Shown piece by piece: positions 7,947 to 27,821 of a stretch of DNA of 32,000 nucleotides; position 1 is the stretch's first letter, and the number at the start of each line of letters is the position of its first letter. The stretch comes from Candidatus Heimdallarchaeota archaeon B3_Heim. Lineage in GTDB: Archaea > Asgardarchaeota > Heimdallarchaeia > Hodarchaeales > Hodarchaeaceae. The position numbers and the translations under genes were made by a program. Under the pieces are notes generated by a model, which made no database searches, was not told the origin of the DNA, and was given only the letters and a program-made list of their open reading frames with translations. The stretch covers positions 60,001-92,000 of the forward strand of contig NJBF01000004.1 in assembly GCA_003144275.1 (NCBI GenBank). Direction: 5' to 3'.

Positions 7947-9389
7947 CTACTCGGGGGTTTGATTTAAATCTTTCTCAAGTATCATTTCATGAATTGCCTT
8001 AGCTGCTTTTCGACCTGCACCCATGGCTAGTATTACAGTAGCTGCACCAGTTGCTACATCACCACCACAAAAGATTCTCTCGCGGGTTGTTGCACCTGTT
8101 TCTTCATCATGTACAAACGTTCCCCATTTAGTAGTGTCCAGTCCATCAGTTGTCATTGCAATTAATTGATTGGGTCGCTGACCTATAGCGATAATAACTG
8201 TATCAACAGGAAAAATAAATTCTGTTTCTGGAATTGGAATCGGTCGTCGACGACCTGAAGCATCTTTTTCTCCTAGATCCATTTTCATACATTTCAGACC
8301 TACAACGTTTCCTTTATTATCGCCAATTATTTCTAACGGTAATGTTAATTCTCCGATAACTACTCCCTCTTCTTTAGCGTGAATTATTTCCTCTAATCGT
8401 GCCGGAATTTCTCCTTCTGATCGTCGATAAATTATATCGACCTCTCGTGCTCCTAGTCGTAAAGAGGTTCTTGCACAGTCCATTGCAACATTACCTGCTC
8501 CGACAACGGCGACTTTTTCCCCAATTGTCACTGGCGTATCATAATCAGGGAACATGTAACCTTTCAAAAGATTTACTCTGGTGAGAAACTCATTTGCAGA
8601 AAATACACCATTAAGGTTTTCTCCAGGAACGTCCAGAAAATTCGGAGTCCCAGCACCAGAAGCAACATAGACAGCATTAAAGTTATACTTTTCTAAAAGC
8701 TCATCTACAGTTATAGTTCTCCCAATAAGCGCATCTTTTTCAAATGTCACACCTAATGCCATGACAGATTTAACTTCGTCATTTACAACAGATTTGGGCA
8801 TTCGGAACTCAGGAATTCCGTAGGTTAAGACACCACCGTATTCATGTAATGCTTCGTAGACAGTTACTTTATGACCTAATATGGCTAACTCTGCAGCACA
8901 TGTCAAACCTGAGGGTCCAGAACCAACAACAGCAACTTTACTACCTAATTCGCTAGCAATATTTCTATCCCCACTTTCTCCATAATCTGCAACAAATCTT
9001 TCTAGATTCCCAATAGAAATAGCATTGGGATGAATACAGAACTCTTGACATTGATTTTCTTGAGGACAAACTCGTCCAGTTATCGCTGGAAGGCTATTGG
9101 TGCACAAGATAATGTCTTTCGCCCCATTGATATCATTTTCAAACAGTTTTTGAATGAATTCTGGAATTTGGACACTAACAGGACAACCTTTCACACAGCG
9201 AGGTTTCTTACACTTCAAACAGCGAGAGGCTTCCTCCAGAGCTTCTTTATCTGTATAGCCTAAAGCAACCTCATTGAAATTACGAATTCGTTCACGAGAT
9301 TCTTGAACACTCATATGAGTTCGTTTTTTCTTGAGCTTTTGCTTGCGTTGTTGCCTATTTTTTTCCCTTTCTTCACTCATAATGTTCAA
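7947..9389 (-). CDS. NfnB/SudA-type NADPH-dependent oxidoreductase (GltD-like large subunit), copy 1
   Basis: CLKCKKPRCVKGCP and GRVCPQENQCQEFC Fe-S motifs, IGNLERF, GSGPSG (FAD), YGIPEFRMPK, GAGNVAMD and YRRS (NADP), GGDVATGAATVILAMGAG. Start is TTG 9389 or ATG 9380. Confidence 0.92.
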   Translation of the reverse strand: MNIMSEEREKNRQQRKQKLKKKRTHMSVQESRERIRNFNEVALGYTDKEALEEASRCLKCKKPRCVKGCPVSVQIPEFIQKLFENDINGAKDIILCTNSLPAITGRVCPQENQCQEFCIHPNAISIGNLERFVADYGESGDRNIASELGSKVAVVGSGPSGLTCAAELAILGHKVTVYEALHEYGGVLTYGIPEFRMPKSVVNDEVKSVMALGVTFEKDALIGRTITVDELLEKYNFNAVYVASGAGTPNFLDVPGENLNGVFSANEFLTRVNLLKGYMFPDYDTPVTIGEKVAVVGAGNVAMDCARTSLRLGAREVDIIYRRSEGEIPARLEEIIHAKEEGVVIGELTLPLEIIGDNKGNVVGLKCMKMDLGEKDASGRRRPIPIPETEFIFPVDTVIIAIGQRPNQLIAMTTDGLDTTKWGTFVHDEETGATTRERIFCGGDVATGAATVILAMGAGRKAAKAIHEMILEKDLNQTPE

Positions 9390-9395
9390 GACTCC

Positions 9396-11243
9396 TTAAT
9401 TTGTTCTTGCCATACGCTCAACGGCAATTCGTTCCTCATAACGGTATGCTCGTGATCGAAGAGTTAATTCTTCAAAATCTACTTTTAAACCATCAAAGTT
9501 AGGGCCATCTACACACGCAAATTTCACTTTACCTCCCACGGTAACTCGACATGCTCCACACATGCCAGTTCCATCAACCATTAATGGAGCTAAGGATACT
9601 ATAGTCGGGATATCGTGCTGTTTTGTGAAATCAACTACTGCTTTCATCATTGGGATAGGCCCAATAGCAACGACATGATCGATTTTTCTCCCTTCATCAA
9701 TGAATTTTCGCAATAAATCTAATCCATATCCATGGTGACCTAACGTCCCATCGTCTGTAGCAATATGTAGCTCATCACTGGCTGAAGTCATCTCATCTTG
9801 ACAGATCAGAAGTGATCCTGTTCGAGCAGAAATAATGCTTATCACATAATTACCTATATCTCTCATTGCTTTCGTTTTTGGCAATACAGGGGCAACACCA
9901 CAACCTCCTCCTAATACTACGACTGTTCCCCATTTTTCTATCTTCACAGGTTCACCAAGCGGTCCTAACAAATTCAAAATATGATCTCCCTCACTTAACC
10001 TTCCCATCAATTTCGTACTCTTTCCTATCTTCTGAAAAATAAGTGTAATAGTTCCAGCTTCTCTATCAAAATCAGCAACTGTTAGGGGAATTCTTTCACC
10101 ATGGTCAGTAACACGTAAAATGACAAATTGACCTGGTTGACATTTCTCTGCGATGCGTGGAGCACTAACGACCCACTTAATTATTTCTGAAGACAAGTCG
10201 ACCTTTTCAATAATTGTACTTTTCCCTTCAACAAACCTCTGGGCTAAGGACGGCTCCAATTTTTCTGGTATCTCTTTACTTGCTTCTTTTTCCAGATTTG
10301 TAAGATAGTGTGAGATCTGCATAGCCGCTGTTTGACCTTCTGCAGCATCAATTCCAACAATCGAATCTCCTCTTATTGCGCTTCCAGCAGCAAATACTCC
10401 CTGTAAGTTTGTATCTTGATTTGCGGAATTAATTATTATTTTTCCTTCAGGTGTGATAGCTAAACCAGCATTCATGAATAATTCTCTATTCTTAATTTTA
10501 CTACTGAGGATAACGATAATCTCAGTTGAAATTGATACTCTCTCACCTGTAGAACTCTTCAAATTCACTTTCTTGACTTTAAGATCTCCCTCAAATGAAA
10601 TAACTTCATGTCCAAAACGAATATTAACAAAACTTTCATTTAATCTTCTTAACAATGCAGGATGTGCATCAAACGCATCTCTAGCGGTAATCAAGCATAC
10701 TTGTGCTCCTAACGAATCATAATGGAGCGCATTTCGAACGGCCCATGAAGTATGACCAATAATGGCAACATTTTTCTCTTCATATTCCCCTTCAGGGGGA
10801 TTATTGTAATAAATTCCTTTAGAATGGTATTTTCGTTCTCCAGGGACATTTAGCTTTTTGGGATGTAAACCCGTGGCGATTAGAACTGTTTTACCGTGGT
10901 ATGCGATTTCTTCCGCAAAGAACTCTCCCCGTACTACAGTAGTATAGACCCGTTTGATCTTACCTTCTAGTTCTAGTCGACTGACACGTTCAGCATATCT
11001 GATCGTTGCATGATATTTTGCTTGACGGGCCATTTTATCCAATAATTCTTGGCGAGTAATACTGAAAAAGCCTGGATAACCATCAACCATCATACTACCT
11101 GCTGTAGCCGATCCTGATCGAGCTTCAAGAACAAGAACACTTCTTCCTAATTCTGCAGCTCGAATTGCACAAGAAATTCCAGCAGGGCCGCCTCCCACAC
11201 ATATGACATCCCATATCTTTGATTCCAACAGATTCTGCTCCAA
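9396..11243 (-). CDS. fusion protein: N-terminal thioredoxin-reductase-like FAD domain + C-terminal NfnA/SudB (FAD/NAD-binding, [2Fe-2S]) subunit
   Basis: N-terminal half: GGGPAG, ATG..PKKLNVPGE...KGIYY, TNLQGVFAAG. C-terminal half (about 9396-10222): CQPGQFVILR..GERIPLTVAD, GPLG, GGGCGVAP, AIGPIPMM, MVDGTGMCGACRV...CVDGP. One continuous 615-aa frame. Confidence 0.88.
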   Translation of the reverse strand: MEQNLLESKIWDVICVGGGPAGISCAIRAAELGRSVLVLEARSGSATAGSMMVDGYPGFFSITRQELLDKMARQAKYHATIRYAERVSRLELEGKIKRVYTTVVRGEFFAEEIAYHGKTVLIATGLHPKKLNVPGERKYHSKGIYYNNPPEGEYEEKNVAIIGHTSWAVRNALHYDSLGAQVCLITARDAFDAHPALLRRLNESFVNIRFGHEVISFEGDLKVKKVNLKSSTGERVSISTEIIVILSSKIKNRELFMNAGLAITPEGKIIINSANQDTNLQGVFAAGSAIRGDSIVGIDAAEGQTAAMQISHYLTNLEKEASKEIPEKLEPSLAQRFVEGKSTIIEKVDLSSEIIKWVVSAPRIAEKCQPGQFVILRVTDHGERIPLTVADFDREAGTITLIFQKIGKSTKLMGRLSEGDHILNLLGPLGEPVKIEKWGTVVVLGGGCGVAPVLPKTKAMRDIGNYVISIISARTGSLLICQDEMTSASDELHIATDDGTLGHHGYGLDLLRKFIDEGRKIDHVVAIGPIPMMKAVVDFTKQHDIPTIVSLAPLMVDGTGMCGACRVTVGGKVKFACVDGPNFDGLKVDFEELTLRSRAYRYEERIAVERMARTN

Positions 11244-11451: not shown

Positions 11452-12420
11452 TTGATGGCAGCAAACACAATGAATATAGATCCTTTTAGTACGAATTCTA
11501 CACTACTGGAGAAATCGACCGAGACTAGTCCATTTTCTTCGACCTTGATCGGATTCTTCTTGTGTTCCTTTGACACAACTTATGGCTTACAAATTCTTTT
11601 TTCTATTCCTGCAAAATTGAAAAAAAACTCCTCAGAACATGATATATTGAAGACACACTATATTTGGAAAGTTGAACATATCCCCATTCCCATTCGTATA
11701 GATCTAAAGATTTCTGAATTTATCTATTCAGCACTTCAATTGATTGGACCTAAATCACATGACGCAGAAGCTACCGTTGAAAAACCGATTTTCGGAATTG
11801 TTTTAAAAATATGGAAGGATGGAGAACATATTCCTCTTGAATTAATTGAACAATTCAGAGACGATCTCCAAATTAATCATTGGAATGACATTGAAATCCT
11901 GTATAAGCGACAAATCCTTGGTTTAAATCCTGCTAAAAGACGTAAATACATACAGCTTTCGGACAAAGTGGCTAAAATCGGAAAATTTCTTCAGACAACT
12001 TGGGAAGATCTAGGAAACAACGTATCCAATACCAAGATGTTCTTTAAAAAACAAAATTTGTCGATTCCCAAATCTTCTGTGTATTCAAGAAGTCAAAAAA
12101 CTCCTGGAAAGAGCTTTTTTAAGGATCCAGTCACAATGCGAGTTTTAGACTCTAAATATCAAAACGATGAGGTTTTAGTAATTTTAGTGAATCAAATGGA
12201 GACATTAGAAGATGTTAAAATCAGAGTGTCTAAAAAGACGGAATTTTTCAGTGAAAATTTATGGGAACAGGATCTTGAGGAATGGCCTACAAAGGAGGAT
12301 CTAATTTTGGAATTTCCACGATCATCAAAATTGGAAAGCTATTTGCTAAAAATAAGTAGCAAAAACCAAACAGTGGCAATTAAATCATTGAATATCGATT
12401 CTACAGATATTAAGTTATAA
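11452..12420 (+). CDS. longin/uDENN-like N-terminal domain protein with C-terminal beta-sandwich-like domain (paralog A)
   Basis: N-terminal IGFFLCSFDTTYGLQILFSIP resembles the hhhhhFD...GP.h...hP start of uDENN/longin (NPRL2/FLCN-type) domains. Visibly paralogous to 12501-13514. Exact start uncertain (TTG 11452, ATG 11455 or 11470). Confidence 0.5.
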   Translation: MMAANTMNIDPFSTNSTLLEKSTETSPFSSTLIGFFLCSFDTTYGLQILFSIPAKLKKNSSEHDILKTHYIWKVEHIPIPIRIDLKISEFIYSALQLIGPKSHDAEATVEKPIFGIVLKIWKDGEHIPLELIEQFRDDLQINHWNDIEILYKRQILGLNPAKRRKYIQLSDKVAKIGKFLQTTWEDLGNNVSNTKMFFKKQNLSIPKSSVYSRSQKTPGKSFFKDPVTMRVLDSKYQNDEVLVILVNQMETLEDVKIRVSKKTEFFSENLWEQDLEEWPTKEDLILEFPRSSKLESYLLKISSKNQTVAIKSLNIDSTDIKL

Positions 12421-12500
12421 AATAGCTACAGGAAAAGATTTAATTTTCAATTTTCTAATGTTTTGTTAATTAATTTGTATTTGAGTATCTATCCTATTAC

Positions 12501-13514
12501 TTGGAGTTCATTTTTTTGCCGAATGGGAAATCAAATCCTATTGATTCATATCACCTTCAAGTAAAAGATCGCTCTTTCGGATTCTTCATTTATTTTTATG
12601 ATGAATTACAAGGTCATTCACTACTGTTTGCCTATCCAAAGGCTCTCATGTCAAGTGAAAACGAAAGGGCCATCTTAGCTATTCACCCAGCGTGGTGGCA
12701 TCAAGATCAATTCCTTAAGTCTGAAAAATTCTCTACAATGGATCTTGAACTTAGTGGAGTGGTATATTCTGCCACTCTCTTCGAATGTGATACACAACGG
12801 TTGAAGAGACGGCCAGGCATGAAAGCAATGAAATGGCAAAAGGAGAGATTTATCCTCATCGTGAAAGCTCCTGAAAAAGTTTCTTTCATTGCTCAAGAAA
12901 TACTCCACGAGTTTCATTCCCAGATAAAGGAAAAATTCAGTAAACATTTGTGTTATCTCGTGCGATTTCAGCTTGAATCGACTAATAAGGCTGAGAACAA
13001 GGACTTTTTACCAGACAACGTTAAATTAGTGGAAGAGGGACTAGCTGAAATTTGTCAATCATTAACTCCTAACACACCAATTAGTAAACTTGAACCTTTA
13101 TTTCATATGGACAGAGAAAGGGAACCTGGCAAAAGGACTACTTTGAACTCTGTACCAAAAAAGAAATTAAGATTCGCGATTCCAAGAAGTAAAGATAGTA
13201 AAATTATTGGCCAGAAAACTTCAGATCATTCTCAAGAAAGTCCAAAATCGATCAAAATTCTATCAATAAGTAGAGGGGAAGATTTAGTAAAAATTTCAGT
13301 AAAAAATACAACTCCTTTCGATCTAAAAAATGTAGTTATCCGAGTCTATGAATCTCATGGTTTCGTTGGTAAAGACAAGAAAGTCAAGAAACTTTTGAAA
13401 TGGGCTCCAAATGAGGTTAGTGAGTTAGAATTTAAACCTGAATTAGATAAAGGGATACGTTACTTACTTAAAATTGAAGATGAAGAAGATAATCTAAAAA
13501 TAAAACGAATTTAA
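12501..13514 (+). CDS. longin/uDENN-like N-terminal domain protein with C-terminal beta-sandwich-like domain (paralog B)
   Basis: FGFFIYFYDELQGHSLLFAYP; shares IL..H..W...DL.+S..+YSA and the C-terminal domain with 11452-12420. TTG start. Confidence 0.5.
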   Translation: MEFIFLPNGKSNPIDSYHLQVKDRSFGFFIYFYDELQGHSLLFAYPKALMSSENERAILAIHPAWWHQDQFLKSEKFSTMDLELSGVVYSATLFECDTQRLKRRPGMKAMKWQKERFILIVKAPEKVSFIAQEILHEFHSQIKEKFSKHLCYLVRFQLESTNKAENKDFLPDNVKLVEEGLAEICQSLTPNTPISKLEPLFHMDREREPGKRTTLNSVPKKKLRFAIPRSKDSKIIGQKTSDHSQESPKSIKILSISRGEDLVKISVKNTTPFDLKNVVIRVYESHGFVGKDKKVKKLLKWAPNEVSELEFKPELDKGIRYLLKIEDEEDNLKIKRI

Positions 13515-13531
13515 AGGTAGGAAAATGCGCT

Positions 13532-13930
13532 TTGAACATAACAAAGGTTAAAGATTTAATGACAAAGGATTTAATAACTATTAGTGGGGATAAAAGTGTG
13601 ATATATGCTTCAGAATTAATGATAGAGAAAAATATTGGTTCTTTATTGGTTTATGAAGATTCCGAAGTGATAGGGATAATTACAGAACGGGATATTGTAA
13701 AAAAAATAATAACCGATTGTAAAGACCTATGTGAAGTTATGGCAATAGAAATTGCTACAAAAGATTTAATCACAATTGCGCCAAAGGATACAATTGAACA
13801 TGCATTAATCACGATGTACAGAAAAAATATTAAACGAATTCCCGTTAAAGATCCTATCTCTCATGAATTAGTAGGTATTATCACAACTCATGACATCATT
13901 GCCGCATTCAATACACTTGAACTAACTTAA
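13532..13930 (+). CDS. stand-alone CBS-pair (Bateman) domain protein
   Basis: VKDLMTKDLITI...ASELMIEKNIGSLLV...GIITERDI and IATKDLITIAP..TIEHALITM.RKNIKRIPV...VGIITTHDI. TTG start with AGGTAGG upstream. Confidence 0.93.
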   Translation: MNITKVKDLMTKDLITISGDKSVIYASELMIEKNIGSLLVYEDSEVIGIITERDIVKKIITDCKDLCEVMAIEIATKDLITIAPKDTIEHALITMYRKNIKRIPVKDPISHELVGIITTHDIIAAFNTLELT

Positions 13931-13939
13931 TTCCGATAA

Positions 13940-15673
13940 TCATTTTTTCACGTCTTCTGCAACAATAATTTTTGACATAATCTTACCATGTAGGTCATTA
14001 ATTGTAATCAGATATTCTTTTTCGCTTTTGTCAATGCGGGGACAATCAACTTCGTGTTCTTCACCAGGTGACCATTGAGGTACAGTTTTTTCGAACATTG
14101 TTGTTTCAAAGAAATCATGAACGTGAGAAATTCGGATTTTAACTTGATCAAGTTCTTTTTCGGAAACGTTAACTAAATTTACTCTTAGATAAACTGATTT
14201 TGGATAGATTGCTACATATTTTAATTCTAATATCTCTTTAGGAATCACAAAGCTTTCAGTAATTTCCTCTGTAGGTGGAAAAAGATCTTCATGAATAGCC
14301 ATTGCCGATCGTCGTCCAGCACCCATTGCAGAAATAACTGTTGCAGCTCCAGTTACAATATCCCCACCCGCGTATACAAACGGTTTACTAGTCCTTCCCA
14401 ATTCATCAGTCACAATATTTCCCCATTTATTCACCTCTAAATCTGGTGTAGTCATTGTAATCAAAGGATTGGCTTTATTTCCTATCGCAATGATAATCAG
14501 ATCCGTAGTGAGTTCAAAATAGTCCCCTTCTATCGGAACTGGTCTGGCACGGCCAGATTTATCTGGTTCCCCAAGTTCATATCGTTGGCAGCGAATAGAC
14601 TCAATTCTCCCTTTTTCGTCACCCATGATCTCTACTGGATTAGATAATAACTTAAATTGAATTCCTTCCTCTTCTGCATGGTGAACTTCTTCCAATCTCG
14701 CTGGCATTTGTTCCCTAGAACGACGATAGACGATATATACATTTTTAGCATCGAGTCTTAAAGCAGTTCTAGCTGAATCCATGGCGACGTTTCCTCCACC
14801 GACTACAACAACATTTTTGCCAGTAAGTAATGGTGTATTATAATCGGGATAAAGGTACGCCTTCATCAAATTCGAACGTGTCAAATATTCATTAGCAGAA
14901 TAAACCCCTTGCAAATTTTCTCCTGGAATATTCATAAACACAGGTAAGCCAGCTCCAACTCCAATATAAACTGCATCGTATCCATCCTCAGAAAATAATT
15001 CATCAATACTGCGAACCCTCCCAATAACTGAATCATAAACAAATTTGACACCAGAATTCTCCAAATTCTGAATTTCATACTGTACAACTGATTTAGGAAG
15101 TCTGAATTCAGGAATTCCATATACAAGAACGCCTCCACCAAGATGAAATGCTTCATAAACCGTTACTTCATACCCCTGTTGTATTAAATCGCCAGCCGTT
15201 GTTAGACCTGAGGGTCCACTCCCGATAATAGCTACTTTTTTCCCATTTTTCTTAACTCGCATGGGTTCAGGAATATGGCCACTAGATCTTTCATAGTCTG
15301 CAACAAACCGTTCGAGATTACCAATTCCTACAGATCTTCCTTTTTTACCCCTAACACAAACACCTTCACATTGAGATTCCTGAGGACAAACACGACCGCA
15401 AACAGCAGGGAGAACATTTCTTTCTTTAATTTTCCAAGCAGCCTCTAAAAATTTCCCTTCTTGTGCAAGAGATATAAATTCTGGTATTGGAACACGTACA
15501 GGACACCCTTCAACACATTTAGATTTCTTACAGTTCAAACATCGATTTGCTTCCTGAATTGCCATCTCTTCGGAATAGCCATAAGGAACTTCACGAAAAT
15601 TCTTTGCTCGTACCTGAGGAGGTTGGGTTGGCATTTCAGAAAAAACTATCTTCATTCGGTCTTTAGACTTCAT
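13940..15673 (-). CDS. NfnB/SudA-type NADPH-dependent oxidoreductase, copy 2, with about 110-aa C-terminal extension domain
   Basis: CLNCKKSKCVEGCP, GRVCPQESQCEGVC, GSGPSG, YGIPEFRLPK, GGGNVAMD, YRRS, GGDIVTGAATVISAMGAG. The core ends at ...AMAIHEDLF (about 14280), followed by an extra domain. Confidence 0.92.
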   Translation of the reverse strand: MKSKDRMKIVFSEMPTQPPQVRAKNFREVPYGYSEEMAIQEANRCLNCKKSKCVEGCPVRVPIPEFISLAQEGKFLEAAWKIKERNVLPAVCGRVCPQESQCEGVCVRGKKGRSVGIGNLERFVADYERSSGHIPEPMRVKKNGKKVAIIGSGPSGLTTAGDLIQQGYEVTVYEAFHLGGGVLVYGIPEFRLPKSVVQYEIQNLENSGVKFVYDSVIGRVRSIDELFSEDGYDAVYIGVGAGLPVFMNIPGENLQGVYSANEYLTRSNLMKAYLYPDYNTPLLTGKNVVVVGGGNVAMDSARTALRLDAKNVYIVYRRSREQMPARLEEVHHAEEEGIQFKLLSNPVEIMGDEKGRIESIRCQRYELGEPDKSGRARPVPIEGDYFELTTDLIIIAIGNKANPLITMTTPDLEVNKWGNIVTDELGRTSKPFVYAGGDIVTGAATVISAMGAGRRSAMAIHEDLFPPTEEITESFVIPKEILELKYVAIYPKSVYLRVNLVNVSEKELDQVKIRISHVHDFFETTMFEKTVPQWSPGEEHEVDCPRIDKSEKEYLITINDLHGKIMSKIIVAEDVKK

Positions 15674-16560
15674 GATGTTTCCTCTTCCCTGGATTTTTCT
15701 TGATATTTAGCTAAGGATCGGCATTCAGGAGAAAAATTCTGTAAACTAAGTGTTTCCTCACTAATATACAAGGTGTTACGTACATGTATTATTTCCTCCC
15801 AATCAATTTTATGGGCATTAAATTCTGGTCCATCAACGCATGCAAATTTTGTTTTACCATCATAAGATAAACGACAGCTTCCGCACATCCCTGTTCCATC
15901 CACCATAATTGTGGTAACTGTAGCATAGGTTGGAATAGCTCCTTTTTCTTTCGTTAGCTTTGAAACCTTGCTCATCATGACATTGCAGCCAATAACTTTG
16001 ATATGATCAATTTTTCGTTGTTGAGATTCAATCATGTGCTCAAGCACATCGTAAATATGTCCCCGTTCTCCTTTAGATCCATCAGTGGTAACAAGGATGA
16101 CTTCATCACTCACAGTTTTGAATTCCTCTTCATAATAAAGTAAATTCTCGTTTTTAGCCTCAATAATTGTTATTACGTGGTTTCCAAGTTCCTTGAGTCT
16201 TTTTGCTATTGGATAGGTCGCACCTACTCCATAACAACCCCCACTCACAACAACTGTTCCAAAATTCTCTAGATAAGCTGGTTCCCCTAATGGCCCTACA
16301 ATGCTATAAAATGAATCTCCTTCTTCCATAAATGCCATTTTGGAAGTAGATAATCCTAATTCCTGGACAATAAATGAAATCGTACCTTTTTCTTTATCCC
16401 AATCTATTAAGGTTAAAGGTATTTTTTCTGACCGTTCATCTACCATTACTAAGATAAATTGACCTGCTTTAGCTTTTCTTGCTATAGTAGGAACTGATAT
16501 ATCTAGCTTGTAAAAATTGGGTACAAATTCTTCCTTTTTTAGAATTTCAAATTTGGACAT
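15670..16560 (-). CDS. NfnA/SudB-type FAD/NAD-binding [2Fe-2S] subunit, copy 2
   Basis: AKAGQFILV...EKIPLTLID, VGPLG, TDGSKG, MVDGTGMCGSCRL...CVDGPEF. 4-bp ATGA overlap with the downstream NfnB. Confidence 0.92.
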   Translation of the reverse strand: MSKFEILKKEEFVPNFYKLDISVPTIARKAKAGQFILVMVDERSEKIPLTLIDWDKEKGTISFIVQELGLSTSKMAFMEEGDSFYSIVGPLGEPAYLENFGTVVVSGGCYGVGATYPIAKRLKELGNHVITIIEAKNENLLYYEEEFKTVSDEVILVTTDGSKGERGHIYDVLEHMIESQQRKIDHIKVIGCNVMMSKVSKLTKEKGAIPTYATVTTIMVDGTGMCGSCRLSYDGKTKFACVDGPEFNAHKIDWEEIIHVRNTLYISEETLSLQNFSPECRSLAKYQEKSREEETS

Positions 16561-18157
16561 CTAATACACCTTTTCCTTTTGACTGGTTGATAGCACGCTT
16601 TGAAGTTATATACAGCCTAAACTCTTCAACTTTGTCAGCTATGGGAACTCCCATATACTCAAGCTGTTGTTTTGATACCTTAGGTATTTCTAGTGGTTCG
16701 GCATTCCTTATTTCATCCTGTAAATTTTCAATTGATTCATGATTAAATCCATCTAATCCCATTGATTGAGCTAGGCGGCTTACAATGATCCAGCTAGGAA
16801 GTGCCTCTCCTGGTGGTTCAACTGCTTTATTTATTGCGTATTTCATGTATTCTTCTCCCGATTTTGTTCCGTCTTCTTCAGCGAACATTGTCGTTGGAAG
16901 AACGACCTCAGCAGTATCAGAAGAATTCGATTGGTATATATCCTGTAGAATCAGGAATTCTAGACCATCAAATTCAGAGAAAACATTCGAATTAAAGGTA
17001 GAAAAGATTGCTTTTACTCCTTGAGACTGTAAATTCTTGATATCTTCTTCGATAAATACAACGGGGTTGGTACTGACTCTTTGTGCAAATTTCAAAAGAA
17101 GATAAACTGCTTCGTCAGTTAAAGATGGAGATAATATAATTCCGATTTCCTCAGGTTTGTAGCCTTTCAACTTATCAGCCGTGTGTGTAATTGCTTCATC
17201 CCAAGGAACTGGATACTGCTCTTCTTTGATTACTTTACGTTTGACAGTAGGGTATTTAAGTCGGTCACGACCATTTACAAGAGCTGGAATACAAAATCGT
17301 CCTTTTACACAATATTCACGACGAGCTGACAATTCATATGGAGGATGAACGTTTACTACCTTATCCCACTTTACGTCAATTACCATTTGACATCCGTGTG
17401 AACATAGATTACATGTTGTTGTAACAGATTTATCGGGAGTTCCAAACCATGTCGAACCACGGGCAATGAGAGCTCCTGTCGGACATACATCAATACAATG
17501 ACCACAAAATACACACCCGCTTTCGAGGTGAGATACTTCTAAAATAGTTCCTACTTTGGTATCATGGCCACGTTTAGTTAGAGCAATAGCACTATATCCC
17601 AATACATCTTGACAGGCTCGAATACAACGAGCACATAGGATACAAAGGTTATAATCTCTTACAAGAAATGGATCATCACGTTCCAACGGAAGATTTTTAT
17701 AAAGCATTGGATACCGTATATCTTTGACCCGTAAATACTCAGAAATTTCTCGAATTTCGCATATTTCCTTGTTACTACAAGTAAAACATCCAATAACTCG
17801 TCCTGCTTTATATTCCCCATGGCGTACTTTTTCACATTCATCGTGTTCCTTACATATTATACAATAACTAGGATGTTCAGCAAGGATTAATTGGAAAACA
17901 TTTCGACGAACAGTTTGTAAATCTGGTGTTGCAGTTCGAACAACCATTCCTTCTCTGGCAGGTAATGTACAGGAATTGGGGTAAGTTCGGTTTCCCTCTA
18001 CATCAATAATACATAATCGGCATGCACCAAATGAAGGTAAATCTGGTCTTGCGCAGAGAGTAGGGATAAAAATTCCAGCTTTTGTAGCTACTTCAAGTAC
18101 AGTCTCTCCTTCCTCAAACACAACACGCCTCCCATTAATATTCATCCACTTGGTCAT
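16547..18157 (-). CDS. NuoG/HydA/FdhA-like multi-Fe-S subunit with internally truncated molybdopterin-fold remnant (no evident catalytic site)
   Basis: [2Fe-2S] IPTLC...GACRLC...SC; His-ligated H..YC..C...C plus a second C..C....C; 2x[4Fe-4S] CILCARCIRAC / CVFCGHCIDVCPTGAL; TTCNLCSHGC...CVKGR. Start reassigned to ATG at 18157 (TAATG overlap with the upstream stop, GGTGG SD) rather than 18241. Confidence 0.85.
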   Translation of the reverse strand: MTKWMNINGRRVVFEEGETVLEVATKAGIFIPTLCARPDLPSFGACRLCIIDVEGNRTYPNSCTLPAREGMVVRTATPDLQTVRRNVFQLILAEHPSYCIICKEHDECEKVRHGEYKAGRVIGCFTCSNKEICEIREISEYLRVKDIRYPMLYKNLPLERDDPFLVRDYNLCILCARCIRACQDVLGYSAIALTKRGHDTKVGTILEVSHLESGCVFCGHCIDVCPTGALIARGSTWFGTPDKSVTTTCNLCSHGCQMVIDVKWDKVVNVHPPYELSARREYCVKGRFCIPALVNGRDRLKYPTVKRKVIKEEQYPVPWDEAITHTADKLKGYKPEEIGIILSPSLTDEAVYLLLKFAQRVSTNPVVFIEEDIKNLQSQGVKAIFSTFNSNVFSEFDGLEFLILQDIYQSNSSDTAEVVLPTTMFAEEDGTKSGEEYMKYAINKAVEPPGEALPSWIIVSRLAQSMGLDGFNHESIENLQDEIRNAEPLEIPKVSKQQLEYMGVPIADKVEEFRLYITSKRAINQSKGKGVLDVQI

Positions 18158-19992
18158 TATGGTACCACCTTTTGGGGCCTGTCTTGTTTGAAGATAGCTG
18201 TTTTTGGACAACTTGAATGACAGATGCCACATGTAACACACACTGCAGTGTCAATGAAATGCACTTGCCCCTTTTCTCCAGTAATAGCACTAACGGGACA
18301 ATTACGAGCGCAAATTGTACACCCATTGCAAAGACTTTCATCAATGACATAATTAATGAGATCTTGACAGTCTTTCGCCAAACAGCGCTTTTCAAAAATA
18401 TGAGATTGATACTCATTACGGAAATACTTAAGAGTCGTTAATACTGGATTTGGGGCAGTTTGGCCTAAAGCACATAAAGAACCCATCTTAACAGTATAAG
18501 CAAGTTCCTCCAAAAGCATAAGATCCTTGTCTTCCCCTTTTCCAGTAATAATTCGCTCCAAAATTAATAGCATGGCTCTGGTTCCAATCCTGCATGGAAT
18601 ACACTTACCACATGATTCAGCTTGAGTGAAAGTCAAAAAATAATGAGCAAGTTTGACCATACAGTTAGTTTCATCAAGTACTATCATTCCCCCTGAGCCC
18701 ATAATACTTCCCGAAGCTGCCATGGTTTCATAATCAACTGGTGAATCCAAATGACTTGGGGGTAAACATCCCCCAGAAGGGCCACCAGTTTGAACAGCTT
18801 TGAATTCTCTATCATCAAGAATTCCACCCCCAATTTCGTATACAATCTCCCTCAAAGGAGTTCCCATGGGAACTTCAATCAAACCTAGATTTTTAACTTT
18901 CCCAGTTAAAGAAAAGATAGCCGTTCCAGTAGCATTCTCAACACCTATTCCATGGAACTTTTCCCACCCATTTTTAAAGATCCACGATGCTGATGCCCAT
19001 GTTTTAACATTGTTAATATTTGTAGGTTTACCCCAAAGTCCAGAAGTGGCAGGAAAGGGCGGCCTAGTACGAGGATTCCCACGATGTCCTTCTATAGAAG
19101 CCATTAATGCGGTTTCTTCCCCACAAACAAACGCTCCAGCACCTTCATGAACCGATATATCAAGAGAAAGACTAGAATTTAGAATATTGTCACCTAGAAA
19201 CCCTCTTTCCTTTGCTGTGACAAGAGCACGGCTAAAACGCTTGATTGCAAGAGGATACTCGGCTCGACAATATATAATTCCATGGGAGGCACCAATAGCA
19301 TATGCACCGATAATCATACCTTCTAATACACTATGGGGATCAGCCTCAAGTAAGGAGCGATCCATAAACGCCCCAGGATCTCCCTCATCAGCATTACAAA
19401 TGATATATTTTTCACTACCAGGAGCATCATGACAAAATTGCCATTTCAGACCTGTAGAAAAACCTGCTCCTCCTCGTCCTCTTAACCCTGAATCTGTGAT
19501 TATCTGAATTATTTCTTCTGGTTTTTTTTCTAGGGCACTCCTTAATCCTGAATATCCCCCAGTATTCATATAAGCATCAATTTCTTCTGGATTAATATGG
19601 CCACAATTACCCAAGATCATTCTAGTTTGTTTACTGTAAAAATCGATATTTTTATAATTTCCAATGCGTTTATTTAGTTTAGGATCCATGAAAAAGAGAT
19701 CTTCGACAAGAACATCGTTTTTAAGATGCGATTCAACAATTTGTTTGACATTAGGAGATTTAACCTGAGCGTACATAACACCTTCTGGCTCAATGATAAC
19801 AATTGGCCCTTGTGCACAAAATCCATGGCAGCCTGTGAAATCTACCTTTATTTTTTCCTGCAAATTGAAGTTTTTAAGCTGTTCTTCAAATTCCTCACTA
19901 ATTTCATCCGATTTAGATGATACACACCCGGTTCCCTTGCAAATTAGAACAGTCTTCTGATAATATTTTTGTAATGATTCCACCTGTGTCAT
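18157..19992 (-). CDS. NuoF/HydB (BfuB)-like FMN/NADH-binding subunit
   Basis: N-terminal thioredoxin-like [2Fe-2S] domain (ICKGTGC...GCHGFCAQGP), SGLRGRGGAGF, CNADEGDPGAFMDR, FVCGEETAL, GGPSGG, ESCGKCIPCRIG, H..EKRC...C, and C-terminal 2x[4Fe-4S] CNGCTICARNCP / CVTCGICHSSCP. Confidence 0.95.
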   Translation of the reverse strand: MTQVESLQKYYQKTVLICKGTGCVSSKSDEISEEFEEQLKNFNLQEKIKVDFTGCHGFCAQGPIVIIEPEGVMYAQVKSPNVKQIVESHLKNDVLVEDLFFMDPKLNKRIGNYKNIDFYSKQTRMILGNCGHINPEEIDAYMNTGGYSGLRSALEKKPEEIIQIITDSGLRGRGGAGFSTGLKWQFCHDAPGSEKYIICNADEGDPGAFMDRSLLEADPHSVLEGMIIGAYAIGASHGIIYCRAEYPLAIKRFSRALVTAKERGFLGDNILNSSLSLDISVHEGAGAFVCGEETALMASIEGHRGNPRTRPPFPATSGLWGKPTNINNVKTWASASWIFKNGWEKFHGIGVENATGTAIFSLTGKVKNLGLIEVPMGTPLREIVYEIGGGILDDREFKAVQTGGPSGGCLPPSHLDSPVDYETMAASGSIMGSGGMIVLDETNCMVKLAHYFLTFTQAESCGKCIPCRIGTRAMLLILERIITGKGEDKDLMLLEELAYTVKMGSLCALGQTAPNPVLTTLKYFRNEYQSHIFEKRCLAKDCQDLINYVIDESLCNGCTICARNCPVSAITGEKGQVHFIDTAVCVTCGICHSSCPKTAIFKQDRPQKVVP

Positions 19993-20486
19993 TCTGGTTC
20001 CTCCTTCGATTTTTCCTTCTTAATCATCCGATTGATAAGTTGGAGTAACTTTGAAGGCTTTACCTGACCGTAGATTTCGTTATCTATTTGTACAACAGGA
20101 GATAGTGCACAACACCCTAAACACGCAACACGTTCAAAACTAAATAGACCATCTTCAGTTGTTTCACCAGGTTCTATTCCTAACTTTGTCCTCACTGCTT
20201 CTGCAAGAATATTTCCACCTTTTACGAAGCAGGCAGTACCAAGACATACCGAGATAATATGTTTTCCCGGTTTAATAAATTTAAACTGCTGATAAAAAGA
20301 AGCGACCCCATAAACTTCATTTGGTGATAATTCAAGATGTTCACTAATCTTTATCAGATTTTCCTTGGATAAATATCCATATTCTTTCTGTACATCCTGT
20401 AATATTGGAATCAGGTGTTCTTGCTTCTTCCCCCTCAAATTTAAGATCTCGTGAATTGTCGAATCTATAGCCTCTGCTGCAACCAC
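19989..20486 (-). CDS. NuoE/HydC (BfuC)-like [2Fe-2S] subunit
   Basis: LIPILQDVQ..YGYL, YGVASFY, VCLGTACFVKG, ACLGCCALSP. GTG start with GGAG SD; ATGA overlap with the NuoF-like gene. Confidence 0.95.
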   Translation of the reverse strand: MVAAEAIDSTIHEILNLRGKKQEHLIPILQDVQKEYGYLSKENLIKISEHLELSPNEVYGVASFYQQFKFIKPGKHIISVCLGTACFVKGGNILAEAVRTKLGIEPGETTEDGLFSFERVACLGCCALSPVVQIDNEIYGQVKPSKLLQLINRMIKKEKSKEEPE

Positions 20487-20701: not shown

Positions 20702-21613
20702 TTATTCCTCACTACTCATCTCAATCAGTAATTCTGCGAAAATTTCCATTTCTTTTAATAATTCTTGAATTGATTCTGCTGGATCAGCTGGTCCCTGCTC
20801 ATCCATCATCATAAGAACGGTTAACACATAACTAAAAATATGAACTTTCAACTTCTTTACATCTGAGCTAGCTGAGAAAAATGCGGATTCAGATGTCAAA
20901 AAATTCTCACGCAGAACATTGCATGCGAAAATATATTCACGAAGGTCTTCACGAAGCTGAATACCAGTAGCAAATCCTTCGATATTATGTGTAATGACAT
21001 TCCCATTAACATCGGTAATTATAATCTTGGAATTCAATTTCGATAAGTATTCTTGTGCACTTTCAACGCTTTTCTTCAATTCTTCAAAATCTGCGATCAA
21101 AAGTTGCTTTATAAAATCACTGAGTTCTTCTTGTCTATAAACAGAGGTTAAAAATTCACGGGGAGAATATTTAACTATAAATGGAAGCTGTTTGGCTTTT
21201 TTGAGATTTTTTTCAAGAGTAGCTTCTACATAATCTTCTGTATCATATTTATGATAGAAGATTTTCACACGAGGATCTCCGTCTTCTTCTTTAATTGCCG
21301 AATAAACATTATCAAAGTACTCGTTTGCCAAGTCAAAATTCTCAGGGTTATGAAGATCAAGAACAAAAATCAAAATTGATGTATTTGCTAATAACTTTGG
21401 TGTTTCTAAATAGCTTTCACGATATTTTTCTTGGCCTCCAAAATCCCATAATGAAACCTGAATCCCAAGATAATTATGGCTTTTGACCTCATACATAACC
21501 GTAGGCCCAAGATCTTTGACCTCTAGAGGAGTCATTCCTCCGAAAGTTGTCGAGTAGATAGATGTTTTTCCGCAACCACTAAGACCAACTAGTGAGATTT
21601 TCATACTTCTCAT
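20702..21613 (-). CDS. Rag/Gtr-like small GTPase with C-terminal roadblock/longin-like domain
   Basis: G1 GLSGCGKT, G2 GPTV, G3 WDFGGQ, G4 HKYD, G5 TSVY. About 125-aa C-terminal alpha/beta domain (…KIIITDVNGNVITH…). Confidence 0.8.
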   Translation of the reverse strand: MRSMKISLVGLSGCGKTSIYSTTFGGMTPLEVKDLGPTVMYEVKSHNYLGIQVSLWDFGGQEKYRESYLETPKLLANTSILIFVLDLHNPENFDLANEYFDNVYSAIKEEDGDPRVKIFYHKYDTEDYVEATLEKNLKKAKQLPFIVKYSPREFLTSVYRQEELSDFIKQLLIADFEELKKSVESAQEYLSKLNSKIIITDVNGNVITHNIEGFATGIQLREDLREYIFACNVLRENFLTSESAFFSASSDVKKLKVHIFSYVLTVLMMMDEQGPADPAESIQELLKEMEIFAELLIEMSSEE

Positions 21614-25009: not shown

Positions 25010-26014
25010 ATGAGTCATTATCTTAAGCAACTAAAGACCCAAAGTTCTCGCAAAATAATACTTTTAGGTCTTTCTCAGGCAGGAAAAACCTCCATACGTG
25101 ATGTTGTTTTCGGAGGCAAAGCACCAGAAGAAACTGCCGATTATGCTGCAACGTTGAACTATGAACGTCAAGTTGAGCAAGTTGCTGATGAGCCTATTAC
25201 AGTGATGGATCTTGGAGGACAGGAAGTTTTTTTGAAACGTTTCCTCAGCAGTATGAGTTCATTCATTTTCAGCAATGTGGCAGTCTTGGTTTTTATCTGT
25301 GATATCTCAACATCTGATAACTTCCCCGCTTCGCTAAAAGCATTCGTCGAAGGCACAAATCGGCTAGAAGAAATGTCAGATGTTCAACCAGCAGTCTATA
25401 TTTTATTGCATAAAACCGATTTAATGCCCGATTTAACTCAAAGAGCAGAAAGAATGGAATTTCTTATGGAGATGTTCCAAACTTCGGTTGTTACAAAAAA
25501 TATTACCTTTTTACAAACTTCAATTTATGATAATTCAATTCATGAGGCATTTAAACGAATTACTGCTGAAGCGAGCGAAATTATTCCTGAAGCAGCTGAA
25601 GTCGAAAAAGAAGAAGACTTAGAAGCTATTCAAAGAAGATTACGGATGCGTCCCATTCAGCAAGTGTTACATGCATTAAAATTCATGAATCGCTTGGATG
25701 ATGTCCTTTTACTATCTACAGTGGAATCCGACTTTATTATTAGTGCATCCGACACAGAAATCAATGAAATTCAACAATTCATAACCATTCTTGATAAATC
25801 AAGAGATTTATGGCTAATTCCCAGTTCGAAATCAGAATTAATGAAAATCGGTAACATCATGTTATTCCGAGCTTCTGTTCCTCCTCATTACTTAATTCTT
25901 CTTGTCTCCTCTGACGAAAAATCCATGTTGGAGACAAGAAAATTGTTAGAAATCGAAGAAACTGTTCGTCTTCTGACAAGTCAACTAGAAAACATGCTGA
26001 AAACACCCATCTAG
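25010..26014 (+). CDS. RagA/B-like small GTPase with C-terminal roadblock-like domain
   Basis: G1 GLSQAGKTSIRDVVF, ATL, DLGGQ..FL, IFSNVAVLVFICD, HKTD, FLQTSIYDNSI. Closely colinear with eukaryotic RagA/Gtr1 motifs. Confidence 0.85.
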   Translation: MSHYLKQLKTQSSRKIILLGLSQAGKTSIRDVVFGGKAPEETADYAATLNYERQVEQVADEPITVMDLGGQEVFLKRFLSSMSSFIFSNVAVLVFICDISTSDNFPASLKAFVEGTNRLEEMSDVQPAVYILLHKTDLMPDLTQRAERMEFLMEMFQTSVVTKNITFLQTSIYDNSIHEAFKRITAEASEIIPEAAEVEKEEDLEAIQRRLRMRPIQQVLHALKFMNRLDDVLLLSTVESDFIISASDTEINEIQQFITILDKSRDLWLIPSSKSELMKIGNIMLFRASVPPHYLILLVSSDEKSMLETRKLLEIEETVRLLTSQLENMLKTPI

Positions 26015-26024
26015 AGGTACCGCT

Positions 26025-26969
26025 TTGCAACAAAACCTAATCATACTAGCTGGCTTATCTCACTCTGGGAAAGATTTGTTATTTAGCCAGATATTAAAAT
26101 TAGGGCGCGCAGAGCCAGGACTGAGACTTCGTGAGAATCTTATTTACTACGAGTGGCTCAATAGATCCTTCAAAGGAAATGAGGATTCATATTTTGAAAA
26201 AGCACTGCCAGCATTGAAAGAAAAATTATACTTGAAAATTAATACACTAATCTATGTCCATGATATTTCATATCAAGTGTTGGATGATTTAGCAAACGAT
26301 TTTAAAGAAGTATATTTCGATATCAAAAAAGTAAACAAAGATTTTCAAGTAATTTTGATAGTAAATAGAGGCCATCTTATCCCAAATGAATTAGAACGAA
26401 CAAAAATTCACAAAAAGGTTGAAAATCATCTCCAGCAACTTATTCCTCAAGAAATTACCTCTTATATTGTCTCTTTGAAGGGTACTGATCAGCAAAGGAT
26501 GACAAATCTTGTTTTTACTCAGATAGCAAATAAGGCAGTGGATTTCACTAAAAACCTTAAGAAAAAACGTGATTCAAGTATAAAAATTCCAAATGATAAA
26601 CAGCTCAAGAAAATTAAAAAAATTCTAAAAGAAAAAATGGACGATTACGGATTTTCAGGTGCTTATCTAATAGGTCACAATCAAGATATTCTGATTGCCG
26701 CTGGAAAAAGTGAGGGGTGGGAAACAAAAGTGGGCCCACAAATTATTCGCATGTTAGCACAGTTTCACGTGTTTGATTTAGGCCCACAATTTCAAGCAGA
26801 CATTATTCGAATTGAAGATTTTGTAATGATTGCTAAAAGGATCAATGCGGAGAATAAAATTATCTTAATTGGAAGGGAATCAATTTTTAAGTACGATGAG
26901 GAACCTTATCCTCGAATAGAAGAAAGTTGTCTCGATATCACAACTGATATTCTAGAAATACTAAAATAA
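26025..26969 (+). CDS. degenerate (pseudo-)GTPase domain fused to a roadblock/LC7-like domain
   Basis: LIILAGLSHSGKD (P-loop, lacking the S/T), no DxxG, NTLIYVHD strand, G4-like NRGH, G5-like VSL. C-terminus ILKEKMDDYGFSGAYLIGHNQDILIAAG resembles a roadblock domain. TTG start with GAGGT SD. Confidence 0.6.
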   Translation: MQQNLIILAGLSHSGKDLLFSQILKLGRAEPGLRLRENLIYYEWLNRSFKGNEDSYFEKALPALKEKLYLKINTLIYVHDISYQVLDDLANDFKEVYFDIKKVNKDFQVILIVNRGHLIPNELERTKIHKKVENHLQQLIPQEITSYIVSLKGTDQQRMTNLVFTQIANKAVDFTKNLKKKRDSSIKIPNDKQLKKIKKILKEKMDDYGFSGAYLIGHNQDILIAAGKSEGWETKVGPQIIRMLAQFHVFDLGPQFQADIIRIEDFVMIAKRINAENKIILIGRESIFKYDEEPYPRIEESCLDITTDILEILK

Positions 26970-26990
26970 TACGAAGAATTGAGTTACTAG

Positions 26991-27806
26991 GTGGAAACCG
27001 TGTTTTCTGGACTAATTGTTACAACCATGGGTGATAAGGGGCCCTACCCACTATTGAATTTATCTTCCATTCCAGAGGACACAGCTGAAAACCTAAGTGT
27101 TATCGGTATGACCATCCTCTTCATGGGAGCAGGAACACTTGCTGAAAGACAACATTATCGTCTACACGGATCACTTCCTGTTCCAAACAATCCGAATATC
27201 GAAGCACTTGCCTTATCCTTTACTGTCTCTCCAACAGAGACATCTGATATTCGTATTGATCAGCATGGACGAGAATCAACCATTTGGCTCCTCTTTAAAT
27301 CAGAAAATCGCGAACGGGTTTTCCAGCTTCACCCTGCTATTGAGCGAGCACTACAGGAAGAGACTAAGAATATTAAAGACGAAAGTGATCTCTCTGATCC
27401 AGAAAAGATGGAAAAAGTTCTATCACGTTTAAAACAAATCACTGAGTCACCAGGTTCTTACGTACCAGTGTCAGATGAGAGTGAACCATCTTACATTCAC
27501 GAAAAGGGAGGTCTTGAGTTCTTCACTGTTAATACTGAAGGCGATTTGAGAGAAATTAATCTTCAAACAGATCTTGCAACACTTCCCGTTCTTATCCTTG
27601 TGAATACACTTCTTAAACGGATTTTCCTAATTAAATTGAAAGATTCTGTGTCCCAACACTTGATGTTTCATGCTGGAACATCAGCTTCTAATATCAATAC
27701 AAATCGCTTTAAAAATAGGTTTTCTATACGAGATGTATTAGATCCAATGGAACGAGCAATGATCTTGGAAAAGATTGGAATAATTCAGGAAATTGGTTCC
27801 CAATAG
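26991..27806 (+). CDS. longin/uDENN-like domain fused to a C-terminal gelsolin-like domain (tentative)
   Basis: N-terminal GLIVTTMGDKGPYPL...HGSLPVP...LALSFTV...SDIRIDQHGR. C-terminal (27510-27806) FTVNTEGDL...VLILVNTLLKRIFLIK...VSQHLMFHAGTSASNINTNRF resembles a gelsolin repeat. GTG start. Confidence 0.45.
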   Translation: METVFSGLIVTTMGDKGPYPLLNLSSIPEDTAENLSVIGMTILFMGAGTLAERQHYRLHGSLPVPNNPNIEALALSFTVSPTETSDIRIDQHGRESTIWLLFKSENRERVFQLHPAIERALQEETKNIKDESDLSDPEKMEKVLSRLKQITESPGSYVPVSDESEPSYIHEKGGLEFFTVNTEGDLREINLQTDLATLPVLILVNTLLKRIFLIKLKDSVSQHLMFHAGTSASNINTNRFKNRFSIRDVLDPMERAMILEKIGIIQEIGSQ

Positions 27807-27821
27807 GAGCTACTACCAGAA

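Follow-up and report, generated by a model that had tools for sequence, protein, structure and literature searches.

Why should two longin proteins and a neighbouring iron-sulfur (Fe-S) flavoenzyme end in one and the same domain? The question is raised by a locus of Candidatus Heimdallarchaeota archaeon B3_Heim (Hodarchaeales; Hodarchaeaceae; assembly GCA_003144275.1, contig NJBF01000004.1), which we analysed within a window of 32,000 nucleotides (nt) covering contig positions 60,001-92,000 of the forward strand; all coordinates below are positions in this window. Two paralogous open reading frames (ORFs), gene A (11452-12420, + strand, 322 amino acids (aa)) and gene B (12501-13514, +, 337 aa), each encode a longin domain followed by a C-terminal domain that we call the tail. 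A further tail stands at the end of an NfnB/GltD-type protein of 577 aa, whose ORF (13940-15673, -) converges on A, B and the CBS-pair gene that follows them. We find that a single, private Asgard domain of immunoglobulin (Ig)-like type is carried by a limited and constant group of proteins, which in many Asgard lineages are inherited as a set around a Rag-type GTPase. Whether the tails are also docking modules, which would tether the Fe-S flavoenzyme to a longin/CBS regulator of that Rag-like GTPase, is an evenly balanced matter on the comparative evidence set out here.

The C-termini of A, B and NfnB are confirmed to be one homologous domain of ~90 aa, in agreement with an earlier reading of this DNA, made by a model from the letters alone (the sequence-only reading), which had proposed that three neighbouring proteins share a beta-rich C-terminal domain. 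A tail profile search of the 3.95-Mb genome finds exactly three copies, all in this locus: on A (12121-12414, +; residues ~226-316; E 9.9e-34), on B (13248-13514, +; residues ~251-336; E 7.2e-31) and on NfnB (13943-14242, -; residues 478-577; E 1.3e-50). The three align with 15 invariant columns. By BLASTP the NfnB tail matches that of A at E 2e-6 (37% identity over 62 aa) and that of B at E 2e-4, identity among the tails of different carriers being 22-37%. Profile-profile alignment, which the sequence-only reading had named as a test of homology, is significant, with hhalign aligning the NfnB tails to the A family at 95.8% (E 6.7e-9) and to the B family at 96.2% (E 2.6e-9). A profile built from A and B only also retrieves FrhB-type tails, at E 1.6e-10 and 4.7e-9, from 1.84 billion proteins.

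In the AlphaFold2 (AF2) models of both A and B the tail is a two-sheet beta-sandwich of seven strands. It aligns with many solved Ig-like and fibronectin type III (FnIII)-like domains at Z 8-9.6, none of them prominent, and the general fold of the models is an Ig-like beta-sandwich. The Ig half of the earlier label 'Ig/CARDB-like' is thereby kept and the CARDB half is not supported: none of the three tails has a Pfam match to CARDB (PF07705) at E<=1, and no Pfam family was matched by the NfnB tail, A or B. Given this and the generic character of the fold, 'CARDB-like' is unproven. An Atlas feature search with the NfnB tail reached at most 0.88 to unnamed clusters and 0.81-0.84 to CARDB clusters, values too low to use. 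Foldseek comparison of the A model with the PDB and AFDB clusters returned weak generic Ig-like matches and no named family. Nearest in AFDB were two proteins without a name, one of 490 aa that matches the tail at its C-terminus and one of 298 aa that is longin-like.

A and B are paralogous over their full length (24% identity, E 5e-9). The AF2 model of A (predicted local distance difference test score (pLDDT) 76, from a 33-row alignment) contains a longin domain at residues ~31-200 (nt 11542-12051, +) with the topology bbabbbaa, formed by strands at 32-41 and 45-52, a helix at 54-67, strands at 83-87, 90-97 and 113-121, and helices at 129-158 and 160-200. This domain ends in a long alpha2-alpha3 hairpin, after which come a disordered linker (201-224) and the sandwich (226-316). 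The model of B (pLDDT 69) has the same order of elements, with the longin at residues ~27-201 and a disordered stretch at 203-245 before the tail. The modelled proteins consist of longin, helical hairpin, linker and seven-stranded sandwich, with no DENN or NPRL-specific domain, so that of the earlier description of A and B as 'longin/uDENN-like' the longin part stands, with Z scores of 9-11, and the DENN part does not.

The relatives of these longins were sought by structural alignment (VIA), all-against-all, against 48,161 PDB chains. For A the best matches are FNIP2 (Z 10.9), a GATOR1 chain (10.6), the Lokiarchaeota Roadblock-Longin protein 8yqg_B (10.3), C9orf72-SMCR8 (10.3), the SEA complex (10.0), FLCN (9.6) and Lst4 (9.6). 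These top matches (Z 9.6-10.9) span 127-145 residues and are without exception longins of GTPase-regulator complexes; TRAPP, SNARE and adaptor longins rank lower. The matches of the B longin are tied, comprising GATOR1 (10.0), Sec22 (9.9), the SEA complex (9.9), FLCN (9.4), FNIP2 (9.2), VAMP7 (within Z 9.0-10.0) and 8yqg_B (9.0). Neither A nor B matches a Pfam longin, uDENN or folliculin model at E<=1, and a sequence profile of the B family has no match among all PDB chains at E<=10. At the level of the predicted structures, the longin fold of A and B is secure and their assignment to the GTPase-activating protein (GAP)-type subclass is only a lean. Known arginine fingers of such proteins are FLCN R164, NPRL2 R78 and SMCR8 R147. 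An invariant arginine before beta3, R82, is the candidate catalytic residue of A, and B has an invariant basic loop between beta4 and beta5 (R100, K102, R104, G106 and M107), in which R100 and R104 are candidates.

Within the genus, A and B belong to a conserved module that also comprises a CBS-pair protein, one tailed Fe-S flavoenzyme and an adjacent Gtr1/RagA-like gene. The tail is present in 21 of 21 other genomes of the genus, usually as three copies within 3-4 kb. The A and B genes and the gene for the 132-aa CBS-pair (Bateman) protein (13532-13930, +; two repeats, Pfam CBS 95.8 bits) form a three-gene operon, with CBS third and intergenic gaps of 80 and 17 nt. Orthologues of gene A occur in 17 loci of the genus, and the position of the CBS gene after A-B is unchanged in all 17 of them.

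The GTPase gene (20702-21613, -; 303 aa) is of the Gtr1/RagA type (PF04670, 1e-22, 81.2 bits against a cut-off of 22). Its Atlas scores are 0.97 with the Gtr1/RagA clusters of Asgard archaea and 0.91-0.92 with the Gtr2/Rag clusters of eukaryotes, and ~118 residues follow the G domain. An orthologue adjoins the module in 15 of the 17 loci. In two genomes, G001 and G016, A and B are missing together with the orthologue of this GTPase (best identity 36%), and a FrhB-like protein with a tail is kept; since the two are close kin, this co-absence amounts to one event. Other Rag-like genes lie farther along the window. Four co-oriented genes at 25010-28754 (+) include clear Gtr1/RagA-type GTPases at 25010-26014 and 27822-28754, a gene with a weak Gtr1_RagA match only (26025-26969) and one for a 271-aa protein without a Pfam family (26991-27806). 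With the gene at 20702-21613 they make up a small island of Rag-like genes.

The flavoenzyme slot of the module is filled in either of two ways. In type 1 loci, which are those of B3_Heim and eight other genomes, a thioredoxin-reductase (TrxR)-NfnA/NfnB2 pair lies on the opposite strand before A-B-CBS, followed by a convergent NuoE-NuoF-NuoG-NfnA-NfnB+tail set and the Rag-like gene. In type 2 loci (nine genomes) the flanks are the same, and next to A-B-CBS, in the same orientation, comes a gene for a ~491-aa FrhB-like protein with a tail, with the Rag-like gene after it. This FrhB-like carrier has a 4Fe-4S dicluster, FrhB_FdhB_N (E 7e-21) and FrhB_FdhB_C (E 2e-43) domains and the same tail; it falls below the NCBIfam equivalog cut-offs for frhB (TIGR03289, 208.6 against 331.5) and FpoF (162 against 475), and is therefore called only FrhB-like. 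The two locus types are mutually exclusive, no genome of the genus holding both a tailed FrhB-like protein and a tailed NfnB. The B3_Heim genome contains no orthologue of the FrhB-like protein, and in the type 2 genomes searched (G007, G009 and G010) the tailed NfnB core has no orthologue; what they do contain is that of NfnB2, 52-54% identical.

In a tree of 68 tails, those of A, B, the FrhB-like proteins and NfnB are each monophyletic (support of at least 99; NfnB clade 99/99), and the NfnB tails group with the FrhB-type tails (95/83), apart from the tails of A and B. To judge from these sequences, the NfnB of B3_Heim and eight sister species took over a FrhB-type tail in a slot that is normally FrhB-like. 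The gene for NfnB with its tail is inverted relative to the FrhB-like gene, an orientation that a simple in-place fusion cannot yield. A single clean replacement of the FrhB-like gene by NfnB was considered and rejected because the NfnB-type genome G011 is sister to the main FrhB-type clade at 100/100 in a tree of the concatenated locus; its placement calls for two or more switches, for an ancestor with both carriers followed by differential loss, or for exchange of the cassette by recombination.

Two further observations concern the make-up of these loci. The pair at 7947-11243 (-) consists of a TrxR-like domain fused to an NfnA-type subunit (615 aa), then the tail-less second NfnB copy, NfnB2 (7947-9389, -; 480 aa). 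It is divergent from gene A in both locus types and is absent from the 20-kb stretch around the tailed FrhB-like gene in G001 and G016. In the single contig of genome G006 (L043 and L051; 1.39 Mb, 71% complete) gene B is in two pieces, the N-terminal one beside A and the C-terminal one 57 kb away beside CBS and the tailed FrhB-like gene, which points to a misjoin or a rearrangement within the module.

The NfnB core at 14285-15673 (-) comprises two [4Fe-4S] clusters and FAD/NAD(P)H domains (Fer4_20 6e-42, Pyr_redox_2 1.3e-36) and scores 592.8 bits with TIGR01316 (cut-off 471.75), the match covering residues 18-463 of 577. The C-terminal extra segment of ~114 aa comprises an approximate core-to-tail linker (residues ~464-477; 14243-14284, -) and the tail. 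Since TIGR01316 ends at residue 463 and NfnB2 has no tail match, the tail is an add-on to NfnB, as the sequence-only reading had maintained.

The stop of the gene for the FAD/NAD-binding, [2Fe-2S] NfnA-type subunit (15670-16560, -; NF004862 340 bits against a cut-off of 220; Pfam DHODB_Fe-S_bind) overlaps the start of NfnB, and the pair is translationally coupled. Upstream lie genes identified by Pfam and NCBIfam matches as NuoG-like (16547-18241, -), NuoF-like (18157-19992, -) and NuoE-like (19989-20486, -). The longest ORF of the NuoG-like gene begins 28 codons upstream of the start of its orthologues, which falls at its residue 29 and gives 536 aa, so that the true start is probably near 18157. 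Because stops and starts overlap, the NuoE-, NuoF- and NuoG-like, NfnA and NfnB genes (13940-20486) probably form one operon, of the NuoEF-based bifurcating type. This NuoEFG-NfnAB operon is found only in genomes whose NfnB bears the tail.

NfnB with the tail occurs in nine species-level genomes, in every case as a protein of 577 aa with no insertions or deletions; independent contigs from ENA, JGI and NCBI add five protein clusters at 90% identity. An assembly chimera, which the sequence-only reading had raised as a possible source of the extension, is rejected on these grounds. The nine tails keep the invariant N, W and E positions of the tail family. Pairwise ratios of nonsynonymous to synonymous substitution (omega) were computed for seven pairs of these proteins, in several of which synonymous divergence is near saturation. 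Omega is 0.02-0.03 for the core in five of the seven pairs (0.08 and 0.12 in the other two), 0.17-0.45 for the linker, taken as residues 464-489, and 0.05-0.10 for the tail in six of the seven (0.22 in one). The low values for the tail and the higher ones for the linker describe a selected domain on a relaxed tether.

Beyond the genus, the apparent range of the tail depended on the profile. A first profile, made from seven tails, matched all 21 of the genomes searched in the genus and none of 40 from the rest of the class, and confinement to the genus was rejected when a broader profile of 38 rows matched 179 of the 400 Asgard genomes surveyed, mostly with three matches each. One large Asgard family has the tail in 130 of 135 genomes; the 38-row profile did not find it in 55 genomes from three other Heimdallarchaeia families. 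The A+B profile retrieves 75 proteins at E<=0.001 from 1.84 billion representatives, and nearly all are longin+tail proteins (300-360 aa), FrhB-like proteins with the tail or fragments, with one longin-tail-4xCBS protein and one longin-AsnC fusion. The tail is thus borne by about four protein types, which co-occur at ~3 copies per genome. The sequence-only reading was right to expect that the tail is not scattered over many unrelated proteins, the carriers being of very few types and always linked, and mistaken in supposing a conserved linkage to Nfn: the linkage is to the Rag-GTPase/longin/CBS module, the widespread enzyme carrier is FrhB-like, and NfnB with the tail is a lineage-specific substitute restricted to part of one genus. 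In a wider form, the central idea of that reading survives. Among the matches listed, tail-bearing ORFs of 577-588 aa are seen only in this genus.

For a survey of neighbourhoods, 20 further loci were annotated with our own profiles. In six Asgard families outside the genus the genes stand in the order CBS, longin-tail, (CBS), FrhB-tail, Rag-like GTPase and a ~385-aa protein with a tail. The Rag-like gene, which adjoins the tailed FrhB-like gene in all six, and the gene for the ~385-aa tail protein come directly after the latter, with longin-tail and CBS genes no more than a few kb away and often arranged in one order on a single strand. Synteny in relatives, which the sequence-only reading had named as a check, holds for the module (17 loci of the genus and six other families) and not for Nfn as a constant member, whose place is normally held by a FrhB-like protein.

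Several of these loci show variants of the same parts. The longin-tail-4xCBS protein P0050 (L056:792-2717) joins a longin, a tail and four CBS repeats in 641 aa; its gene stands between a CBS gene and, farther on, genes for a ~389-aa tail protein and a Gtr1/RagA-type GTPase. In P0084 (297 aa) an A/B-type longin is fused to an Lrp/AsnC-type ligand-binding domain where the tail would be, which suggests, from the sequence, a small-molecule input to this longin family. The distant longin-tail genes P0076 and P0085 (L060:363-3516 and L061:186-2589) come directly after the gene for the large subunit of a [NiFe] hydrogenase, the small subunit gene also being present in L060, upstream of the large one. 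At L062:12747-18018, four tandem same-strand genes for ~420-aa V4R-domain (TRAPPC3/Bet3-like) proteins follow FrhB-tail, Rag-like and ~383-aa-tail genes. In another Asgard family, longin-tail genes occur as tandem pairs (L075:8542-10610 and L076:9601-11788), so that paired paralogs like A and B are not unique to the genus.

What, then, might the tails do? On the docking reading they would bind one another or one common hub, and would assemble the flavoenzyme with the CBS protein and the longins A and B, the enzyme being held by its flexible linker. The redox state, as NAD(P)H or ferredoxin, and the adenylate state could then bias a GAP-like or guanine nucleotide exchange factor (GEF)-like action of A and B on the Rag-like GTPase. 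We favour docking because the homology of the tails is significant and only three copies exist, at one locus, most other tailed genomes also having three. It is favoured further because the enzyme in the slot was swapped and yet the newcomer NfnB carries a FrhB-type tail under purifying selection, because A and B have longin folds and the order of the module recurs in six Asgard families, and because the longin-tail-4xCBS and longin-AsnC proteins are fusions of the Rosetta-stone kind. The joint absence of A, B and the Rag orthologue from G001 and G016 argues in the same direction, and the distant longin-tail genes that follow [NiFe] hydrogenase subunit genes provide a further link to redox metabolism. 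Physical docking, regulation of the GTPase and the direction of signalling are the parts of this scheme that we infer.

A number of observations weigh against the docking reading. It is from comparative genomics that we infer binding of the tails to each other or to a common partner. The Rag-like gene of this genus is encoded opposite to A-B-CBS and is not transcribed together with them. Among the loci fetched from the large Asgard family f20, longin-tail genes are solitary or in tandem pairs, with no enzyme or GTPase gene within 10 kb. G001 and G016 keep the tailed FrhB-like protein although they lack A, B and the Rag orthologue, so the tail must have some function for which those three are dispensable. 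FrhB-type and NfnB-type genomes do not part cleanly in the locus tree, and the history of the swap is not one simple event. As to the longins, SNARE-type and coat-type domains tie with GAP-type ones for B, and the arginine finger is not placed in either protein, R82 of A and R100/R104 of B being candidates only. A GP motif at the start of beta2, or immediately preceding it, has been proposed as the signature of GAP-type longins (PMC12290439); it is half present here, an invariant Gly (G45 in A, G38 in B) opening beta2 and being followed by Leu in A and His in B, never by Pro. A complex prediction that combined the NfnB tail with both longin proteins at full length, using a separate alignment for each chain, scored 0.00 in two runs without controls and weighs neither way.

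If the tails do dock, the assembly could run in either direction. We tentatively entertain the possibility that it is a dedicated metabolic-state sensor of the Rag GTPase, in which the flavoenzyme and the CBS protein, as adenylate sensor, would be tethered through the tail to a folliculin/GATOR1-like longin dimer, and redox state or energy charge would set the nucleotide state of the GTPase.

The same assembly run in reverse is a rather doubtful alternative, though one with several points in its favour. The Rag-like GTPase and the longin pair would then stand upstream, the tailed flavoenzyme would be the client or output and the tail its recruitment handle, so that the switch would localise, activate or silence the enzyme. 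Eukaryotic Rag and Arf systems do recruit effectors. The cores of the tailed enzymes are intact and strongly constrained (omega 0.02-0.03), and come with full NuoEFG-NfnAB operons, which fits working enzymes better than dedicated sensors; the tailed FrhB-like protein also stands alone in G001 and G016. The CBS pair in the operon and the AsnC-type ligand domain on a related longin point instead to metabolite input.

It is unlikely that the tail is a self-contained accessory domain of each carrier, serving homo-oligomerisation, stability or the binding of a ligand or surface, with neighbouring copies arisen by local duplication and shuffling. A generic Ig-like sandwich does serve many unrelated roles, the f20 longin-tail genes have no enzyme or GTPase gene near them in the fetched stretches, and the tailed FrhB-like protein can occur without A and B. 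Against this, the low identity of the tails (22-37%) and their spread over many Asgard families are not accounted for by recent local copying, the carriers are limited to about four co-occurring types at ~3 copies per genome, and the exchange of the enzyme in the slot came with a tail on the new enzyme. Least credible by far is that the NfnB tail has no function and is a neutral relic of the rearrangement by which the Nfn operon came to lie where a FrhB-like gene had been: the tail is of FrhB type and both gene sets use one slot, but it has an omega of 0.05-0.10 in six of seven pairs, a constant length of 577 aa for the protein in nine species and retained N, W and E positions, and lies in a gene inverted relative to the FrhB-like one.

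Asgard genomes contain dozens of small GTPases and longin/roadblock proteins. Cognate GTPase-regulator pairs of Asgard archaea have been described as hard to infer from gene order (PMC10933270). The module provides a defined and conserved set of candidate partners around one Rag-type GTPase, namely longins close to the folliculin/GATOR1 class, a CBS sensor and a redox enzyme, all marked out by a private domain. The genus offers a natural swap experiment, in which one enzyme gave way to another in the slot and the new one bears the same tail under purifying selection. Should the binding and the regulation of the GTPase prove true, energy metabolism would be tied to a eukaryote-type switch in the lineage nearest eukaryotes, and the origin of Rag/GATOR/folliculin signalling would become testable with a few recombinant proteins. 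If the sensor reading were correct, the system would be a prokaryotic forerunner of the eukaryotic Rag nutrient hub, with redox enzymes in place of amino-acid sensors, and the interchange of FrhB-like protein and NfnB would show that its input is modular.

Among known systems, the closest in outline are the eukaryotic GAP complexes FLCN-FNIP, GATOR1 NPRL2-NPRL3 and C9orf72-SMCR8. These are likewise built on two longin proteins, here paralogs encoded side by side, and they supply the best longin-fold matches of A. The present locus also has an adjacent gene of the Gtr1/RagA family, a metabolite-sensing CBS protein within the unit and an invariant Gly where the GP motif sits. It differs from those complexes in that a helical hairpin and an Ig-like tail replace the DENN or NPRL part, the Pro of the GP motif is absent and no Pfam longin model is matched. 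It differs further in the Fe-S flavoenzyme that a shared domain links to the other parts, an arrangement for which we know of no eukaryotic counterpart, and the GAP role of A and B is putative.

Asgard 'FLCN/SMCR8-type' and NPRL2-like longins and abundant Rag-like GTPases have been noted from genomes (10.1101/2020.10.19.343400; PMC12290439). The published accounts of these GAP-type longins make no mention of a C-terminal sandwich or of a FrhB/Nfn/CBS link, the terms F420 and CBS are absent from the text of the former, and A and B differ in lacking the GP Pro. We found no published description of the shared tail or of a FrhB/Nfn-CBS-longin-Rag link in a literature search that was incomplete and does not prove its absence. 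The solved Lokiarchaeota Roadblock-Longin dimer (PDB 8yqg) is alike in being an Asgard longin close to the GAP type, with Z scores of 10.3 to A and 9.0 to B.

On the enzyme side, the locus resembles NfnAB, the NADH-dependent ferredoxin:NADP oxidoreductase, and the NuoEF-based bifurcating enzymes of Bfu/Stn type, in that the NfnB core passes TIGR01316, NfnA is coupled to it and NuoE/F/G-like genes lie upstream. It is set apart from NfnAB by the ~114-aa C-terminal extra, found only in this genus among the matches listed. The FrhB/FpoF family of F420-interacting Fe-S flavoproteins shares with the other tail carrier the 4Fe-4S dicluster and the FrhB_FdhB_N and FrhB_FdhB_C domains, whereas the tailed protein falls below the equivalog cut-offs and adjoins a Rag-like gene rather than hydrogenase or Fpo genes. 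Finally, MglA-MglB and other prokaryotic GTPase/roadblock pairs are alike in placing a small GTPase near a regulator of the roadblock/longin superfamily. Unlike in those pairs, the putative regulator here is a longin and consists of two paralogs that bear additional domains, the GTPase belongs to the Rag/Gtr type, and CBS and redox proteins stand beside them as partners.

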